In this document: one piece after another, positions 5,263 through 17,700 of the stretch
Layout of the letters: every line of letters begins with the position of its first letter
How positions within the stretch are numbered: position 1 is the stretch's first letter
Source: an uncultured Methanomassiliicoccaceae archaeon
GTDB lineage: Archaea; Thermoplasmatota; Thermoplasmata; Methanomassiliicoccales; UBA472
Length of the DNA stretch: 64,000 nt
NCBI GenBank assembly: GCA_964354665.1
Contig: CAYHAO010000001.1
Coordinates: forward strand, 13,520 to 77,519
Direction: 5' to 3'
Program-made: the position numbers and the translations under genes
The notes under the pieces: generated by a model
Database searches by the model: none
The model's input: only the letters and a program-made list of their open reading frames with translations
Told to the model about the DNA's origin: nothing

Positions 5263-5721
5263 TCACTTTCTTTTGACGGGCTTCTTTCCTTCCTTAAGGC
5301 TAGTGAAGAAGTCGTGGTGCTCCTCCTCGTCCTCCAGGATCTCGCGGAAGATGAAGGCAGTGGTGGTATCGCCCTCGTTCTCAGCATCGCAGATGATCTT
5401 CTTGTACATCTCAATGGCTTCCATCTCGGCCTTGATGTTGTTGTCCACCATCTCCCATAGCTCGCCGCCGACAAGTATGGGCGCGGGCTTGGTGGTCGGT
5501 ACCCCTCCCAGATACCAAAGCCTCTCCGCTATCTTCTCCGCATGCTTCATCTCCGCGATGGCGACGCTCTTGAACTCGTCCGATACGGCGTAATGCTCGA
5601 CCCCCGCCCATTGGACATGCTGCCACATATACTGGACAGAGACCTGCATTTCGCGAGCTATGGCTTTATTTAGCCATTCTAGTAACTTCTGAGACGCCAA
5701 ATCATTACCTCCCTCGGGCAA
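5263..5721 (-). CDS. Bacterioferritin/Dps-like ferritin
   Basis: 152-aa ORF. LNKAIAREMQVSVQYMWQH...AEMKHAEKIAERL...EMEAIEMY...LEDEEEHHDFF matches the ferritin-like di-iron ligand pattern. Confidence 0.7.
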   Translation of the reverse strand: MPEGGNDLASQKLLEWLNKAIAREMQVSVQYMWQHVQWAGVEHYAVSDEFKSVAIAEMKHAEKIAERLWYLGGVPTTKPAPILVGGELWEMVDNNIKAEMEAIEMYKKIICDAENEGDTTTAFIFREILEDEEEHHDFFTSLKEGKKPVKRK

Positions 5722-5806
5722 ATGGCCCAGATGTGGTACTATTCCAAGGGTCCATTAATAAAGCTTATGGAGATTCAGATGAAGGATCCCCCTGACCAGT
5801 GGAGGA

Positions 5807-6967
5807 TTATTTCTTCTCCTCTTTGTCCAAGACTTTGGTGTCCACTGCCGTCCTTGGCATGATGACCTTCCTGCCCACCCACCAAAAGGCCAAGATGGTT
5901 GCGTTCACGGTGGCGAGGATGGTTATCCCGGTGTACCAAAGAAGGGTCTTGGCGTCAAGGCCTTGAATGGAACCGAAGAACGTGGCGATGGTGTTGGGGA
6001 CAAGAAGCGCCGTTCCCAGGATGGTAAGCCAGGCTACGGCCAAGGTCATGCGGTTGTTTAAGGTCTGCAGCTGGTTGTTGTAAATGGACTGGAGGACCTC
6101 GAGGCCGGAAGCGAGCACATCGGACATGTGCTCCGCCAAGGAGATCTGACGATTGACATCCTCGATGAGCAAGCCGACCTTGGTGAGGACCTTGGGATTA
6201 TCGGTGATCACGTCAGCGTCCCCGTAGCGCAACGAGTTGAGCACGTCATTGGTTCGCCACATCGAGTTGAGATATTCGATGAGAGCGTGCTTCATCTCGT
6301 AGATGTTGCGGCCGATCTTTTCCCTGGGGGTGCTGGGGTTGGATAGAATCTCGCTCATCTTGTCCCCTTGATCCTGGATCTCCCTGAGCTGTTCGAAGTT
6401 GCGGTTGTTGTTCTCATCCAAGATTCGGACGAGCATGTTGGTGAGCTTGTCCTCGGACGGCATGTTGTCCGGCAATTTGCGAAGGAAAGTGTCCGCATAT
6501 CGGGAGAATTGTATGAACCTGGTCACGGCCTCGTTGTGCATGGTGAGGATGAGGTTCTTGCGGATGAGCACGATGAGGTTATAGGTACGGATCTCAAGGC
6601 CATGGATGCGGACCGCGGGAATCATGAGGCCTAGCTCCACCTCCCTGTCCTCATAGTTCGAATAGTAACCTTTCAGCAAGGAGGAGACCAGGGTATCACT
6701 GAACCCCAGCCTAGCGGCGACCTCAGTACCATCCTTCTCCAGGTCGGCCACCGCGAAGTTGATCCAAGCGATGTTGCAGGTCTGCACGATTTCCCTGAAC
6801 TCGGACGGGGATTCGCCATAGACCTTGACCGGTTTCTGACCAGAGGCCAGGGCGACGCATACGGCTCGGGGGGTCTGCGAGGGCAGTGGGCCACCGGGTA
6901 GGCTGGCAGCTGCCGGTTCCGTTGCTGATGGCGCGCCCTGTTCCCCATTAGAAGGCTTGCCCTCCAT
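5807..6967 (-). CDS. CorA-like divalent cation channel lacking the GMN motif
   Basis: 386-aa ORF with a CorA-type cytoplasmic alpha/beta and coiled-coil region and two C-terminal TM helices. The position of YGMNF reads TFFGSIQG. The N-terminal 45 aa are Pro/Ala-rich. Confidence 0.65.
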   Translation of the reverse strand: MEGKPSNGEQGAPSATEPAAASLPGGPLPSQTPRAVCVALASGQKPVKVYGESPSEFREIVQTCNIAWINFAVADLEKDGTEVAARLGFSDTLVSSLLKGYYSNYEDREVELGLMIPAVRIHGLEIRTYNLIVLIRKNLILTMHNEAVTRFIQFSRYADTFLRKLPDNMPSEDKLTNMLVRILDENNNRNFEQLREIQDQGDKMSEILSNPSTPREKIGRNIYEMKHALIEYLNSMWRTNDVLNSLRYGDADVITDNPKVLTKVGLLIEDVNRQISLAEHMSDVLASGLEVLQSIYNNQLQTLNNRMTLAVAWLTILGTALLVPNTIATFFGSIQGLDAKTLLWYTGITILATVNATILAFWWVGRKVIMPRTAVDTKVLDKEEKK

Positions 6968-7090
6968 AGACCGATCCCCCTGTCTGAGCCGAGGGTATGA
7001 ATTAGGTTGCTTGAATACTTCGCCCCCGTCTTCCGGAAATCGCGTCTAAAAAAAGTTGATGCCTTGGCGTTGGGAGGTTGAGCTGACCGA

Positions 7091-8161
7091 TCATTTCCTC
7101 GAGTAACGATAGGCGATGTTGCACGAGCCTTCGCGGCTGACCATGCAAGGCCCCATCGGCCTTTTCGGGCTGCATCCCTTTCCGAAGACCGGGCACTGCA
7201 GCGAAGTTATTATTCCCCGCAGCACCTCCCCGCAGCGGCATCCGCCCATCTCCTCCTTGACCGTCGGAGCGGACCTCAGGACGTCGTGGAACTTCACTCG
7301 GGCGTTGTGCGCGTCGAACGCCTTTCGGAGCTCGTAGGCGCTCTTGGGTATCACTGGGAATCCTCTCCAGTTCCGGTCCACCGGCTCGAACACCTTCTCG
7401 AGCATGGCCCGCGCCTTCGGGTTGCCCTCGGCCTTGACCACCCTTGAATATTCGTTCTCGACCTCGTGCCTGCCCTCGGCGATCTGCTTGCACATCATGA
7501 AGACGGCCACAAGCAGGTCCAACGGCTCGAAACCGGCGACCACCTGAGGTATCTTTCGTTCCACGGAGAAGCGGTCGAAGGGCTTGGTCCCAATGATGGT
7601 GGCCACGTGGCCTGGCTGAATCAATCCATCGATCCTGACCTCCCCCAGGCTGAACAGCGCATCCAATGCGGGAGGGAGGAGCCGGTGGCAGCTCACGACC
7701 GAGAAGTTCTCTGGAAGGGGATTGAGCATCACTGCCGCGGTGGTCGGGCTCGTGGTCTCAAATCCGATAGACATGAAGGTCATCTCTATAGCAGTGGGCG
7801 AGAGCTTTATGGCGTCCTCCACGGAGTACACGACCCTGACGTCGGCACCCTTGGCCTTGGCGTCGGCCAAGGAGCCGATGGGGGTGGGGACGGTCATCAT
7901 GTCCCCGAAAACGGCGATGGTGACTCCTGACTCTGCCAGAACGATGGCCTCGACGATCTCCTTGGTCGTGGTCACGCATACGGGGCATCCCGGTCCTTGG
8001 CGGATCTCCACGCCCGTGTCCTTGAGCATGTCCTCGAGGCCGAATCGGACCAGGGTGTCCTGATGGGTGCCGCAGACGTGCATGAATCGTACATTGAGAT
8101 GATACCTGGAAATGGACTCTATGACCTTCTTGGCCGTGGCCTCGTCCCTGAATCTGAACAT
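7091..8161 (-). CDS. hypD: [NiFe]-hydrogenase maturation protein HypD
   Basis: 356 aa with GPGCPVCV, GFETT and PGHVATIIG motifs, and a C-terminal Cys cluster CRCGEVL...C. Confidence 0.9.
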   Translation of the reverse strand: MFRFRDEATAKKVIESISRYHLNVRFMHVCGTHQDTLVRFGLEDMLKDTGVEIRQGPGCPVCVTTTKEIVEAIVLAESGVTIAVFGDMMTVPTPIGSLADAKAKGADVRVVYSVEDAIKLSPTAIEMTFMSIGFETTSPTTAAVMLNPLPENFSVVSCHRLLPPALDALFSLGEVRIDGLIQPGHVATIIGTKPFDRFSVERKIPQVVAGFEPLDLLVAVFMMCKQIAEGRHEVENEYSRVVKAEGNPKARAMLEKVFEPVDRNWRGFPVIPKSAYELRKAFDAHNARVKFHDVLRSAPTVKEEMGGCRCGEVLRGIITSLQCPVFGKGCSPKRPMGPCMVSREGSCNIAYRYSRK

Positions 8162-8536
8162 CTACCTTTCCACCACCTTGAGCGAGGTCACAGCGCAGCC
8201 TTTGCCTTTCGTGACCTCCACCCCAGCACCGCAGCGAGGGCAGGACAGGTTGGGGATGATATGATCTTGACCAACGCCGCTCAAATAATCGACGCCACCA
8301 GCATATCCGCACGAGTGACAGAGCACCTGCACCTTCTCCTCGTCAATGACGAGCTTCGACCCCTCCAATATGGTATCCCTGGTGACGATCTCGTAGGCGA
8401 ACTCAAGCTGGTCCCGGCCGAGGAAGGTTATCTCGCCGATGACCATGTGCACCTCCTCGACCTTCTCGACGTCGTGCCGCTTTAGTTCCTCCAGCACCGC
8501 CTCTACGATGCTAGCCATCACCGATACCTCGTGCAC
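8162..8536 (-). CDS. hypA: Hydrogenase nickel-insertion protein HypA
   Basis: (M)HEVSVMASIVEAV N-terminus and zinc-site CHSCG...CPRCG. The GTG start at 8536 is preferred (the ORF extends to a GTG at 8548). It abuts the hypD start. Confidence 0.85.
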   Translation of the reverse strand: MHEVSVMASIVEAVLEELKRHDVEKVEEVHMVIGEITFLGRDQLEFAYEIVTRDTILEGSKLVIDEEKVQVLCHSCGYAGGVDYLSGVGQDHIIPNLSCPRCGAGVEVTKGKGCAVTSLKVVER

Positions 8537-8561
8537 GCGTCTGGACACGCACCCAGCATTA

Positions 8562-12872: not shown

Positions 12873-12914
12873 GAAGCAAAGATATTTCTTTTGGCAGATA
12901 GTAGCTGGGATGTA

Positions 12915-13343
12915 ATGGACAACGTCACTCGCATCGGAGTCTCATTGGAGCCAGAGCTGCTGAAGAGCTTCGACCTCCTGGTGGCGCAGAAGGGCTTCGC
13001 CACCCGGTCCGAGGCCATCCGCGACCTCATACGCAACGCACTAGTCCACGAGTCCCTCTCCCATGACGAGTCCCACGCCGTGGGAACGATCACCCTCGTC
13101 TATGACCATCGCCATGGCGGGGTGAAGGAGAACATGATGGAGGTGCAGCACCTTCATCATCAGGTGATCTCGTCCTCCATCCACGTTCACCTCGACGAGG
13201 AGAAATGCCTCGAGGTCCTGGTCGTCCACGGCACGGTCGAGGGCATTCAGGGCTTGGTCAAGGCCCTCACCAATGTCAAGGGCGTGACCCATGGCCAGCC
13301 TGTCCTCATTGCCGGAGAGCTGAGCGAACATCACATCCATTGA
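12915..13343 (+). CDS. nikR: Nickel-responsive regulator NikR
   Basis: Ribbon-helix-helix N-terminus VTRIGVSLEPELLKSFDLLVAQKGFATRSEAIRDLIR and a C-terminal metal site pattern HHQVISSSIHVHLDEEKC. ATG at 12915 (the ORF opens at a TTG at 12891). Confidence 0.85.
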   Translation: MDNVTRIGVSLEPELLKSFDLLVAQKGFATRSEAIRDLIRNALVHESLSHDESHAVGTITLVYDHRHGGVKENMMEVQHLHHQVISSSIHVHLDEEKCLEVLVVHGTVEGIQGLVKALTNVKGVTHGQPVLIAGELSEHHIH

Positions 13344-15874: not shown

Positions 15875-16309
15875 TCAATGGTCGTGCCCGTGGTCATCTT
15901 CGCAATGATCATGCCCCTGGAACTCCATGTCCTCGAAATCGATGTGCATGCCCTTGCCATTGAAGACCGATCTCGCGCAACGGACGACGATCGCCTCCAC
16001 CTTGGGCTTGTCCAGGCCGTAGATGAGCACGTTGAGGATGAGATTCAGGCTCTTCGAGCTTCCATCCAGCTCGCCCCGGCACATGGCTTCGTTCTCTGCC
16101 GAGACCACGCTGCAGGCGATGTACTTGCCCGAGTCGACCTCGGCGATGCACTTGATGTGACCTATCAACCGAGCACCATCGCTCATGCACTCCTTGGCCA
16201 CCTTGGATATCGTGTTGGACACCAAGGACTTGAGCTCGTCGGGACCCTTGGCCCGGTCGAAGTGCGCATGCACCTTGCCTGCGTAGGCGACGAAGTCATC
16301 GGTGATCAT
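15875..16309 (-). CDS. His-tailed protein translationally coupled to the COG0523 GTPase (possible separate CobW_C-like module)
   Basis: 144-aa ORF whose ATG (16309) directly follows the GTPase stop (16310-16312). The C-terminus is FQGHDHCEDDHGHDH, and the central segment ARLIGHIKCIAEVDSGKYIACSV is reminiscent of CobW C-terminal domains. Confidence 0.55.
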   Translation of the reverse strand: MITDDFVAYAGKVHAHFDRAKGPDELKSLVSNTISKVAKECMSDGARLIGHIKCIAEVDSGKYIACSVVSAENEAMCRGELDGSSKSLNLILNVLIYGLDKPKVEAIVVRCARSVFNGKGMHIDFEDMEFQGHDHCEDDHGHDH

Positions 16310-16906
16310 TCAGCCCACCATCGCTTCCAATACCTTGTCCAGGTTGGTCCCTTCCGTGGCAGAGGCGGGTATTATCTCGGCCTTGACCCCCGACTCCCTG
16401 ATCTTGGACTCGATGCCCGAGAGGACCTCTGGCTTGACCCGGTCCATTTTATTGATGATGATGACGTGGGCCGCCTTCAATTGATTCTTAAACGGCCTCT
16501 CCAGGGCCTTGGCGATAATTTCGTATCTTTCGGCATCCACTATTATGACGATCTTGGTGGATTCGATGGGCGGACCGATGTACAGCTTCAAGGTGCCGTA
16601 GATCGCCTCTGGGTCTGCCACCCCCGTTGGCTCGATGACCACGAGGTCTGGCTTGAAGGCCTCCGCGACATCGCGCAAGGTGGTCAATAGGTCCGAGCCT
16701 AGGGTGCAGCAGATGCAGCCACTGGGCATTTCCCTGACCTTCAATCCATATTTCTCCATGACCTTGCCATCTATGCCAATCTTACCGAAGTCGTTCACGA
16801 TCACGACCACCTTCTTGTGCTTCCGCTTGGTTATCTCATCGATGGTGGATAGCACCATGGTTGTTTTACCAGAACCTAGGAAACCGGAAATCAGCAGCAG
16901 GTCCAT
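16310..16906 (-). CDS. COG0523/CobW-family G3E metallochaperone GTPase (G-domain only)
   Basis: 198 aa with Walker A GFLGSGKTT, metal-binding GCICC, switch EPTGVADP and NKMD. No fused C-terminal domain. Confidence 0.8.
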   Translation of the reverse strand: MDLLLISGFLGSGKTTMVLSTIDEITKRKHKKVVVIVNDFGKIGIDGKVMEKYGLKVREMPSGCICCTLGSDLLTTLRDVAEAFKPDLVVIEPTGVADPEAIYGTLKLYIGPPIESTKIVIIVDAERYEIIAKALERPFKNQLKAAHVIIINKMDRVKPEVLSGIESKIRESGVKAEIIPASATEGTNLDKVLEAMVG

Positions 16907-16917
16907 AGACGCACCTT

Positions 16918-16936
16918 TGGCATTTGAGCAATGCCA
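16918..16936. promoter_or_regulatory. Perfect inverted repeat TGGCATT-N5-AATGCCA between TATA-like box and start codon of the COG0523 gene (candidate operator)
   Basis: On the minus strand, TTTTAAATA (16949-16957) is followed after 12 nt by the palindrome, then AAGGTGCGTCT and the ATG at 16906. Confidence 0.4.
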
Positions 16937-17009
16937 TCAGGACGACTCTATTTAAAAGTGAGCAGTTACAGACCCTGAAATTCGAAGTTCTTTTGAGCGA
17001 GGAGAGTCT

Positions 17010-17225
17010 TCACCACTCCTCTTCCTCGTCCCCTTGGCCAGAGAAATGGCGCTCGAGCTCGTCCCTTTCGAGAGCGATCCTCTCGTTGCGGCAGGCCCGG
17101 CACTCCATTATCTTGCCCAATGACACCTTCTTGCTGGCGATGCTCTGGTCCACCTCGGCTATGGCCCCGCAGGAGCACAGAACCTTGCGCTTGGGAGGGT
17201 CCCCGAATAGCATCAGCACCTGCAT
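17010..17225 (-). CDS. Small zinc-ribbon protein with acidic tail (hypothetical)
   Basis: 71-aa version starting at ATG 17225 (MQVLMLFGD...) with CSC...CRAC Cys pairs and a C-terminal GDEEEEW. The 173-aa ORF in the track extends implausibly upstream. Confidence 0.35.
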   Translation of the reverse strand: MQVLMLFGDPPKRKVLCSCGAIAEVDQSIASKKVSLGKIMECRACRNERIALERDELERHFSGQGDEEEEW

Positions 17226-17700
17226 CGAGCGTCCTGATTTGCTTACCCTAGGATAGGCCAGATCACCCTTGTAGGCCCTAGCTCCGCTCAATGAGTCGTT
17301 TGTCAGCCGGGCTTCGCGGCTCATCAAGGCCTCCGCTGATTGCCTTGTGCTATGCAATTTATCTCCCCCACTACGGTAAAACGCGCATCCCAGTCTATCT
17401 GCCCCATCCCTCTCCTTTTTAACTGGCGGATTAGGCTTTGCTGTGCATTCCTCCGAGCAAAAAAAGATAATCAGAAGTGCGGACTTAAACGTTTCGCAAG
17501 CGCTCTGCTCCCATATCCAGATGTCCGACATTTAGTGTCAGACGGACGTCATGCGATGCATGAATTAGTGCATCGTCGAAAATACAATTCGATAAGTGCA
17601 CAATGGATAATAATCTGGCTCCTGGCCAATCAGTCATCATATCTGTGCTTTACCATGCTGGAAGGTCCTCCTTCGTTGTCTGCCAGCTTACCTGACCGAA

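Follow-up and report, generated by a model that had tools for sequence, protein, structure and literature searches.

A probable two-polypeptide COG0523 metallochaperone GTPase in Methanomassiliicoccales and its possible link to corrinoid-dependent methyl transfer

Can a COG0523 metallochaperone be made of two separately encoded polypeptides, and which client would such a protein serve? This question is raised by two adjacent genes, here called G and T, on the minus strand of a 64,000-nucleotide (nt) stretch of DNA from an uncultured Methanomassiliicoccaceae archaeon (contig CAYHAO010000001.1, positions 13,520 to 77,519; assembly GCA_964354665.1). This whole stretch is referred to below as the window. 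An initial annotation had described the pair as a split COG0523-type GTPase, controlled by a palindromic operator and located in a nickel/hydrogenase-maturation neighbourhood. The analysis presented here supports the reading of G and T as a COG0523 GTPase made of two polypeptides, one with the G domain and the other, encoded by its own gene, as its partner. With a probability of roughly 0.6, the G-T operon encodes a two-polypeptide COG0523 metallochaperone GTPase of which T is the detached C-terminal domain, with a client that is likeliest to be found in corrinoid methyl transfer. The positions of the relevant features are collected in Table 1.

The translation of G contains the motifs GFLGSGKTT, GCICC, EPTGVADP and NKMD, and the Walker A (GxxGxGK[ST]), CxCC and NKxD signatures of COG0523 proteins are all present. 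The Pfam model cobW (PF02492) matches G with E = 1.4e-41 and 142.5 bits, compared to a cut-off of 20.7, and G residues 4-179 align with profile positions 3-179 of 180. The model thus spans G from end to end and leaves no stretch of it free for a linker or an additional domain. The protein stops at residue 198 and lacks the C-terminal domain that in COG0523 proteins is joined through a linker to the same polypeptide, whereas fused relatives of ∼330 amino acids (aa) do contain it. The description of G as a G-domain-only GTPase, made in the initial annotation, is therewith confirmed. The C.CC motif is conserved in all 48 related G sequences. When a G-domain profile of the family, derived from the alignment of fused members (A5), is compared with solved structures, the nearest is Escherichia coli YjiA (E = 7.6e-29, versus 1.7e-07 for HypB). 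Three more specific models score G below their cut-offs: the HypB model TIGR00073 with 38.9 bits (cut-off 121.2), the CobW equivalog model with 89.6 bits (cut-off 332.1), and NF041053, the NCBIfam model of CobW-related selenoproteins, with 87.9 bits (cut-off 180) over positions 1-194 of 195. On the last model relatives of G reach 96-103 bits. A tblastn search revealed no second G3E gene in the 64-kb window. Judged by those COG0523 criteria that are open to sequence tests, G is a member of this type and would be predicted to hydrolyse GTP under stimulation by a metal and to pass the metal on to a client.

Related loci were collected by scanning one genome per species, which yielded 40 loci, nearly all from Methanomassiliicoccales together with one Desulfatibacillum and one Anaerolineae genome, and were supplemented by loci found via exact protein look-up. 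Because a narrower T alignment was used for retrieval, the sample is biased to LIGHIKC-type, mostly archaeal, members. In 46 split loci a short G gene is found directly upstream of T wherever upstream DNA exists, which answers the survey for adjacent short-COG0523/partner pairs that had been proposed for this locus. The junctions comprise 26 four-nt overlaps, nine one-nt overlaps, six abutting genes, three seven-nt overlaps, and single gaps of 1 nt and 24 nt. In 44 of the 46 loci, among them those of Desulfatibacillum and Anaerolineae, the end of G falls between 7 nt within T and 1 nt ahead of its start codon. In the window the TGA of G (16310-16312) abuts the ATG of T (16307-16309), so that the junction and the 144-aa open reading frame (ORF) are as originally described, and a GGTG element is kept 6-10 nt ahead of the T start codon across the loci. 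Both ORFs are genuine genes, G being better conserved than T (e.g., 56% versus 42% identity), and the two are predicted to be expressed from a single operon with coupled translation.

No Pfam or NCBIfam model matches T, and none matches 52 of its relatives in a meaningful way. For the partner and its fused counterpart no curated Pfam or NCBIfam model exists, both are named 'hypothetical protein', and a literature search identified no paper on either of them and nothing useful on CobW in Methanomassiliicoccales. T has 38 close homologues, of which every named one comes from a Methanomassiliicoccales genome assembled from a metagenome. A profile built on 17 close homologues and searched against 1.84 billion representative proteins gave matches in 374 clusters at 50% identity, most of them free-standing proteins of 125-160 aa. 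Some matches are ∼330-aa proteins in which the T-like region, at residues 200-325, follows an N-terminal cobW domain with GCICC. Seeding the search with four such fused proteins revealed at least 120 of them, with lengths of 290-377 aa and PF02492 as the sole annotation. A neighbour-joining tree of the G domains, without support values, separates a clade with the split forms of Methanomassiliicoccales and Desulfatibacillum from a clade with the fused forms. In the same tree the split Anaerolineae gene groups with a fused gene, so that fission or fusion may have occurred more than once.

The AlphaFold2 model of T, with a predicted local distance difference test (pLDDT) score of 84.5, consists of β1 (residues 6-21), α1 (23-43), β2 (48-58), β3 (63-68), β4 (76-79), β5 (85-97) and α2 (101-115), followed by a short extra strand β6 and a disordered tail. 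In the model of the fused relative P0188 (pLDDT 84, predicted TM-score 0.82) the same elements recur in the same order after a low-confidence linker. As compared along the chain in these models, this order is identical to the β1-α1-β2-β3-β4-β5-α2 order published for COG0523 C-terminal domains (PMC13001444 among other sources). The three best matches of the fused model in the Protein Data Bank (PDB) are all YjiA, with 352-362 aligned columns and E-values of 5e-12 to 5e-11, whereas only ∼205 columns align with HypB and UreG. The root-mean-square deviation from YjiA is 21 Å, a large value that would fit a different arrangement of the two domains.

COG0523 C-terminal domains are reported to share a single conserved motif, RxKG, which is located in strand β2 and has been termed 'invariant' (Rocchio et al., bioRxiv 2026, PMC13001444). 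Its Arg has been proposed to act as an arginine finger in the manner of a GTPase-activating protein (GAP), with the Lys as a catalytic contributor, and an isolated C-terminal domain added in trans rescues the GTPase activity of RxK mutants (PMC13001444). In T and its fused relatives a GHxK motif is located in β2, the same strand as the canonical RxKG. An alignment of 53 diverse T-family members contains Lys53 as its sole invariant column, while C41, I49, G50, H51, S67, N93, Y97, G98 and L99 are conserved in at least 90% of the sequences, giving the family signature LIGHIK ... N-V-L-x-Y-G-L. GHIK is present in 47 of 48 loci. T thus departs from RxKG in that the Lys is invariant, a His (at least 90%) replaces the Arg, and C, A or S replaces the Gly. 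By eye, the YjiA sequence 'LLRYKGMLWIDGEPNRLLFQGV ... STMVFIGIQLPEEEI' runs parallel to 'RLIGHIKCIAEVDSGKYIACSVV ... LNVLIYGLDKPKVEAI' in T. The fused forms, the topology of a C-terminal domain, the position of GHxK in β2 and the adjacency in every locus that has both genes all bear out the two-polypeptide COG0523 protein suggested by the initial annotation.

In such a protein, G would bind GTP and hold a metal ion at CxCC. T would then dock onto GTP-loaded G and present β2, with GHxK in the role of RxKG, and this docking would set off GTP hydrolysis and release of the metal to the client. His51 and Lys53 may exert a GAP-like action, and in Methanomassiliicoccales the His/Asp/Glu tail of T may add a metal-buffering or hand-over site.

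The T tail is probably a low-affinity metal-binding or reservoir segment. At least four His are present in the last 25 residues of 31 of the 46 split partners, which agrees with the roughly 40% of COG0523 proteins that carry a His-rich region according to the literature. The 'His-tailed partner' of the initial annotation is therefore correct for this locus and the tail is common, but it is not universal, being missing in e.g. L030 and L040.

A conserved Cys/His metal site formed by C41, C54, C66 and C77 was considered as a feature of the T family and rejected. Cys54, Cys66 and Cys77 are invariant in close relatives of T, but more distant family members have A, S, G, V or T at these positions, and a general metal site is therefore excluded.

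The most likely client area is the corrinoid-dependent methyl-transfer machinery, as suggested by the gene neighbourhoods of relatives. Methanomassiliicoccales are obligate methyl-reducing methanogens that depend on corrinoid methyl-transfer enzymes. Of nine loci outside this order, eight contain corrinoid-related genes (Table 1), and none of the nine contains hyp, ure or nickel-uptake genes. A similar association has been described for most archaeal COG0523 genes ('subfamily 13'), which co-localise with mtaA, mtaB, mtaC and ramM, MtaA and MtaB being Zn enzymes (Haas et al. 2009). Furthermore, most characterised COG0523 proteins handle Zn (PMC13001444 among other sources). A role in metal or cofactor supply for corrinoid methyl transfer, with Zn or Co as the metal, is the simplest and most economical interpretation. 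Candidate clients are Zn-dependent methyltransferases of the MtaA/MtbA type (URO-D family) or of the MtaB type, or the corrinoid proteins themselves, while hydrogenase or nickel is unlikely as a client.

Table 1. Features of the G-T locus and of related loci (positions in the window or, where a locus handle is given, in that locus)
Feature	Position	Strand	Description
T subunit gene	15875-16309	minus	144 aa, ends in HDHCEDDHGHDH; probable free-standing homologue of the COG0523 C-terminal domain with acidic His-rich tail
T tail QGHDHCEDDHGHDH	15878-15919	minus	disordered His/Asp/Glu/Cys tail, pLDDT <50 at residues 130-141
G50-H-I-K-C54 of T	16148-16162	minus	in strand β2; putative 'HxK' counterpart of the canonical RxKG arginine-finger/lysine motif
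Coupling junction ATGGTGGGCTGAATG	16307-16319	minus	GGTGG Shine-Dalgarno-like element in the last G codons; TGA abuts ATG
G subunit gene	16310-16906	minus	198-aa COG0523-type G3E GTPase; G domain only, without linker or C-terminal domain
CxCC motif C64-I-C-C67 of G	16706-16717	minus	read from the sequence; high-affinity metal site defining COG0523 (role from PMC13001444)
Inverted repeat TGGCATT-N5-AATGCCA	16918-16936		perfect; between TATA box and Shine-Dalgarno element
TATA-box-like element TTTTAAATA	16949-16957	minus	likely promoter of the G-T operon
Zinc-ribbon ORF	17010-17237	minus	conserved, small; C-terminal 75 aa; immediately upstream of G
NikR	12891-13343		confirmed by Pfam
HypA	8162-8548		confirmed by Pfam
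HypD	7091-8161		confirmed by Pfam
CorA-like transporter	5807-6967		after the hypA-hypD unit
Ferritin/rubrerythrin-like gene	5263-5721		after the hypA-hypD unit
L055			fused; B12-binding protein, GTPase, DUF1638, B12-binding protein, URO-D (MtaA-like), RACo, pterin-binding methyltransferase
L046, L048, L050, L056			fused; CooS, ACS, corrinoid iron-sulfur protein, RACo, DUF3786, GTPase
L049			fused; DUF3786, GTPase, Cys-rich protein, URO-D, second cobW, CdhD/ferredoxin
L047			fused; DUF3786, GTPase, Cys-rich protein
L045			split; ECF cobalt-transporter components, radical-SAM protein, G, T, URO-D, MTHFR
L040			split; PocR-domain protein, G, T, ABC transporter
Cys-rich module	L046 8992-9186, L047 9001-9195, L049 9010-9204, L050 8998-9192, L056 9042-9236		∼65 aa, directly after the fused GTPase gene

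Several observations weigh against a COG0523 C-terminal domain in T or against a client in corrinoid methyl transfer. The Pfam model CobW_C (PF07683), proposed earlier as a check on T, matches none of the 53 T-family members even at E = 10, and none of the fused relatives. The T-family profile retrieves noise from the PDB sequences and does not recover the YjiA C-terminal domain, and the HMMER alignment of the fused-family profile with YjiA is restricted to the G domain. Comparison of the T family by hhalign with YjiA alone and with 74 YjiA/YeiR C-terminal domains, which form a shallow profile of Enterobacteriaceae only with at least 88% identity, gives probabilities of 0.4-1.6%. The best path, which is not significant, sets H-I-K-C against R-y-K-G. 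The T model alone matches YjiA weakly in Foldseek (E = 0.02-0.04, TM-score 0.34-0.36), and generic α/β sandwiches such as M20 dimerisation domains, HPPK and MoaC rank beside it. A His takes the place of the catalytic Arg, which makes the GAP-like chemistry hypothetical. With regard to the client, the Methanomassiliicoccales have no corrinoid genes beside the pair, which sits in a housekeeping block near topA and nikR, and the assignment thus rests on distant relatives. In addition, the Ni enzyme ACS (acetyl-CoA synthase) is encoded in four of the bacterial contexts, and for those a Ni client is possible.

YeiR is an accepted COG0523 member with a recognised C-terminal domain. In the precomputed Pfam annotation, most E. 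coli YeiR entries carry PF02492 only, PF07683 being usually absent, and a missing PF07683 annotation therefore says little about whether a protein consists of the G domain alone. Since COG0523 C-terminal domains are moreover highly variable (PMC13001444), the failure of CobW_C on the T family is read as low sensitivity of the model and not as evidence against homology.

Within a corrinoid context the pair might handle cobalt or the finished cobamide instead of zinc, either as a CobW-like supplier of Co(II) or as a MeaB-like gate for cofactor loading. In L045 the split pair has an ECF cobalt-transporter component as a neighbour, and in L055 the fused gene is flanked by B12-binding proteins; moreover, CobW itself is a COG0523 member that acquires Co(II), and MeaB is a G3E chaperone of a B12 enzyme. 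Such a role is nevertheless unlikely: no cobamide-biosynthesis genes are seen in any of the neighbourhoods, the score of G on the CobW equivalog model is far below its cut-off, and the preference for Zn of most characterised COG0523 proteins, as well as of MtaA and MtaB, points the other way.

It is quite unlikely that the family serves carbon monoxide dehydrogenase/acetyl-CoA synthase (CODH/ACS), for instance by inserting Ni into the A-cluster of ACS, with an incidental link to corrinoids. In four of the seven fused loci the gene does stand at the end of a cluster encoding CooS, ACS, the corrinoid iron-sulfur protein, RACo and DUF3786, but in these clusters it always follows RACo and DUF3786, on the side of the corrinoid protein, and L055, L045 and L049 are methyltransferase operons without ACS. 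All retrieved Methanomassiliicoccales loci keep the pair, while this order is described as having no CODH/ACS.

The role originally suggested for the pair, delivery of nickel, would make it a substitute for HypB that acts with HypA and HypD and is repressed by NikR through the palindrome. This proposal draws on the proximity of the NikR gene (2.5 kb) and of the HypA and HypD genes (8 kb), an arrangement that recurs in relatives, on the His-rich tail of T, and on the absence of any other G3E gene from the window. The pair is flanked by a small zinc-ribbon ORF and by the convergent gene topA, which lies between it and nikR. HypA and HypD are reached past genes for an ADP-forming acyl-CoA synthetase, an Asn-synthase-like protein, a Mur ligase and a DNA glycosylase. 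Throughout the order the block reads RFC, L40e, a response regulator with DUF835, enolase, OsmC, the zinc-ribbon ORF, G, T, topA, nikR, the Asn-synthase-like gene, the Mur ligase, the glycosylase, HypA and HypD, and it persists even where T is only 33-37% identical; the remainder of the window is housekeeping as well (arginine biosynthesis, MetRS, FtsZ, SHMT, Amt). Because the block is conserved and mostly housekeeping, the linkage to nikR and hyp genes represents ancestral gene order and is not evidence of shared function; the block has the character of synteny rather than of an operon. The supposed nickel/hydrogenase-maturation neighbourhood therefore does not support this role, and hyp, ure and nickel-transport genes do not accompany any of the nine outside loci, eight of which contain corrinoid-related genes. 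G, furthermore, carries the CxCC of COG0523 and remains far under the HypB cut-off.

The palindrome is not supported as the operator that nickel-dependent repression would need. It is present, together with the promoter box and the 12-nt spacer, at the positions given in the initial annotation, but outside the window it was found in L005, L007 and L008 only, where G is at least 88% identical and the entire promoter region is conserved; in L005 and L007 it is already degenerate. It is missing in L001-L004, L009 and all more distant loci, and upstream of orthologues with a G identity of 80% or less. No second copy of the motif occurs in the window. Perfect inverted repeats of 7 bp with loops of 0-9 nt number 54 there, compared to a mean of 44 (range 34-65) in shuffled sequences. 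As an operator the palindrome was rejected on these grounds (lack of conservation beyond near-identical relatives, a single copy and a frequency as expected by chance), and it is probably lineage-specific. In known NikR operators the half-sites are separated by about two helical turns, in the palindrome by 5 bp. Taken together, nickel delivery by the pair finds no support and is very unlikely. Hardly credible, finally, is the view that T is a small metal-binding protein without relation to the truncated GTPase encoded upstream of it, which the lack of a sequence-profile link to CobW_C and the weak fold match of T alone would allow, but which is contradicted by the 120 or more fused clusters, the full-length match of the fused model to YjiA, the same order of elements with the conserved motif in the same strand, and the universally overlapping junctions.

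The window contains hypA and hypD as a two-gene unit in the region 5263-8548, with no hypB, hypC, hypE or hypF nearby. The HypA-HypD pairing is also found in L052. A literature search on hypB in Methanomassiliicoccus gave nothing useful.

The element TTTTAAATA is likely to be the promoter of the G-T operon. It is separated by the 12-nt spacer from the palindrome, which is followed by AAGGTGCGTCT and the ATG of G. A box of the TTTAAATA/TTTATATA type occurs 40-60 nt upstream of the G start in most Methanomassiliicoccales loci, which makes an independent promoter for G-T plausible. At the other end of the operon, the convergent stops of topA (15868) and T (15875) are 6 nt apart, and any G-T terminator, e.g., the T-run CTTTTTAT on the minus strand, is therefore located inside topA. 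The overlapping part of topA encodes a Lys-rich C-terminal tail.

The zinc-ribbon ORF is possibly a third component of the G-T system. In tblastn searches of loci within L001-L052 it lies upstream of G in 39 of the 39 loci that have it, and directly upstream in most. It shows the motif MFG..K.LC.CG....D......K..LGK.VEC..CRN.RIA.E.E.L..F.G with an acidic end and has no Pfam or NCBIfam match. In the window it was called as a 173-aa ORF, of which the true start is probably further downstream. Homology of this ORF to DUF3786 or to the bacterial Cys-rich module with CPGQD was considered, and no detectable similarity was found.

The bacterial loci contain further recurring companions of the fused gene. 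The region 7135-14371 of L055 is a complete corrinoid methyltransferase operon in which the fused GTPase gene and DUF1638 are located between two genes for B12-binding proteins; DUF1638 is also found just beyond HypD in the Methanomassiliicoccales locus L052. Six of the seven fused loci encode DUF3786 (∼190-200 aa) shortly before the fused GTPase and usually after RACo. It immediately precedes the GTPase gene in L046, L049, L050 and L056; in L048 it is one gene away, and in L047 the distance is ∼730 nt. Nothing relevant on DUF3786 was found in a literature search. The Cys-rich module found in five bacterial loci has the motif CPGQD.RYW..EDI.DV.CP.C..IEF.KDEP..C..C..EVRNP.IDLGCAKWCK....C.G. and occurs either on its own, as a 71-aa protein, or at the N-terminal end of a protein with an HD domain, with weak zinc-finger matches only in Pfam. 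Some fused members are named 'Ni2+-binding GTPase involved in maturation of urease and hydrogenase' by the Joint Genome Institute, a label that their gene contexts do not support.

A more far-reaching, tentative interpretation is that the diffusible C-terminal-domain protein with GHxK is a dedicated GAP and metal-donor subunit, and that the whole family, split and fused, is an unrecognised maturation factor of corrinoid methyl transfer acting alongside RACo/RamA, DUF3786 or DUF1638. We consider this possible but doubtful. Its scope would extend from the methanogenic Mta, Mtm, Mtb and Mtt systems to that branch of the Wood-Ljungdahl pathway which involves the corrinoid iron-sulfur protein, with a factor that is split in Methanomassiliicoccales and fused in many anaerobic bacteria. 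The link to corrinoid proteins, RACo, URO-D methyltransferases and the corrinoid iron-sulfur protein does point to an unrecognised accessory factor, which would be relevant to methylotrophic methanogenesis, with its contribution to gut and wetland methane, and to acetogenesis. The two-polypeptide COG0523 protein proposed here would also be a ready-made two-component system for biochemistry. Its natural and widespread split would provide independent evolutionary support for the proposal of a GAP domain acting in trans (PMC13001444), and its GHxK motif would imply that RxKG is not invariant and raises the question whether a His can serve as the finger.

With the canonical COG0523 proteins (E. 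coli YjiA and YeiR, Acinetobacter baumannii ZigA and MigC, Bacillus subtilis ZagA and the eukaryotic ZNG1) the G-T pair shares the Walker A, CxCC and NKxD motifs, the β1-α1-β2-β3-β4-β5-α2 sandwich with a basic motif in β2, and a frequent C-terminal His-rich stretch, YjiA being the best structural match of the family. It departs from the COG0523 definition in two respects, the C-terminal domain as a polypeptide of its own, with the cut at the linker, and GHxK in place of the supposedly invariant RxKG; the Pfam model CobW_C is in addition blind to the T module. Unlike the canonical proteins, which occur in the context of the Zur regulon, members of the G/T family are found in a corrinoid methyl-transfer context or in a housekeeping block. 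The 'subfamily 13' of Methanosarcina (Haas et al. 2009) also combines archaeal COG0523 genes with corrinoid methyltransferases, and the bacterial relatives of G/T show a like association, but the Methanomassiliicoccales pair does not lie beside methyltransferase genes. The selenoproteins of NF041053 have the same length as G (195 aa, G domain only) and align with it end to end; G, unlike these, has no selenocysteine and scores below the cut-off, and the NF041053 model includes no partner gene. HypB and UreG are G3E GTPases of ∼200 aa that, as G would, rely on separately encoded partners (HypA or UreE/F/D), and His-rich segments are a common feature there too. G differs from them by its CxCC metal motif, and T is probably homologous to the COG0523 C-terminal domain and not to HypA or UreE. 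A functional parallel is the in vitro trans-complementation of ZigA and MigC (PMC13001444). There the isolated C-terminal domain associates with the matching G domain and contributes the residues that activate GTP hydrolysis, as the natural split would need. ZigA and MigC were dissected by engineering and use Arg and Lys, whereas the G-T pair represents a natural split across an archaeal order and some bacteria, in which His and Lys would take their place.

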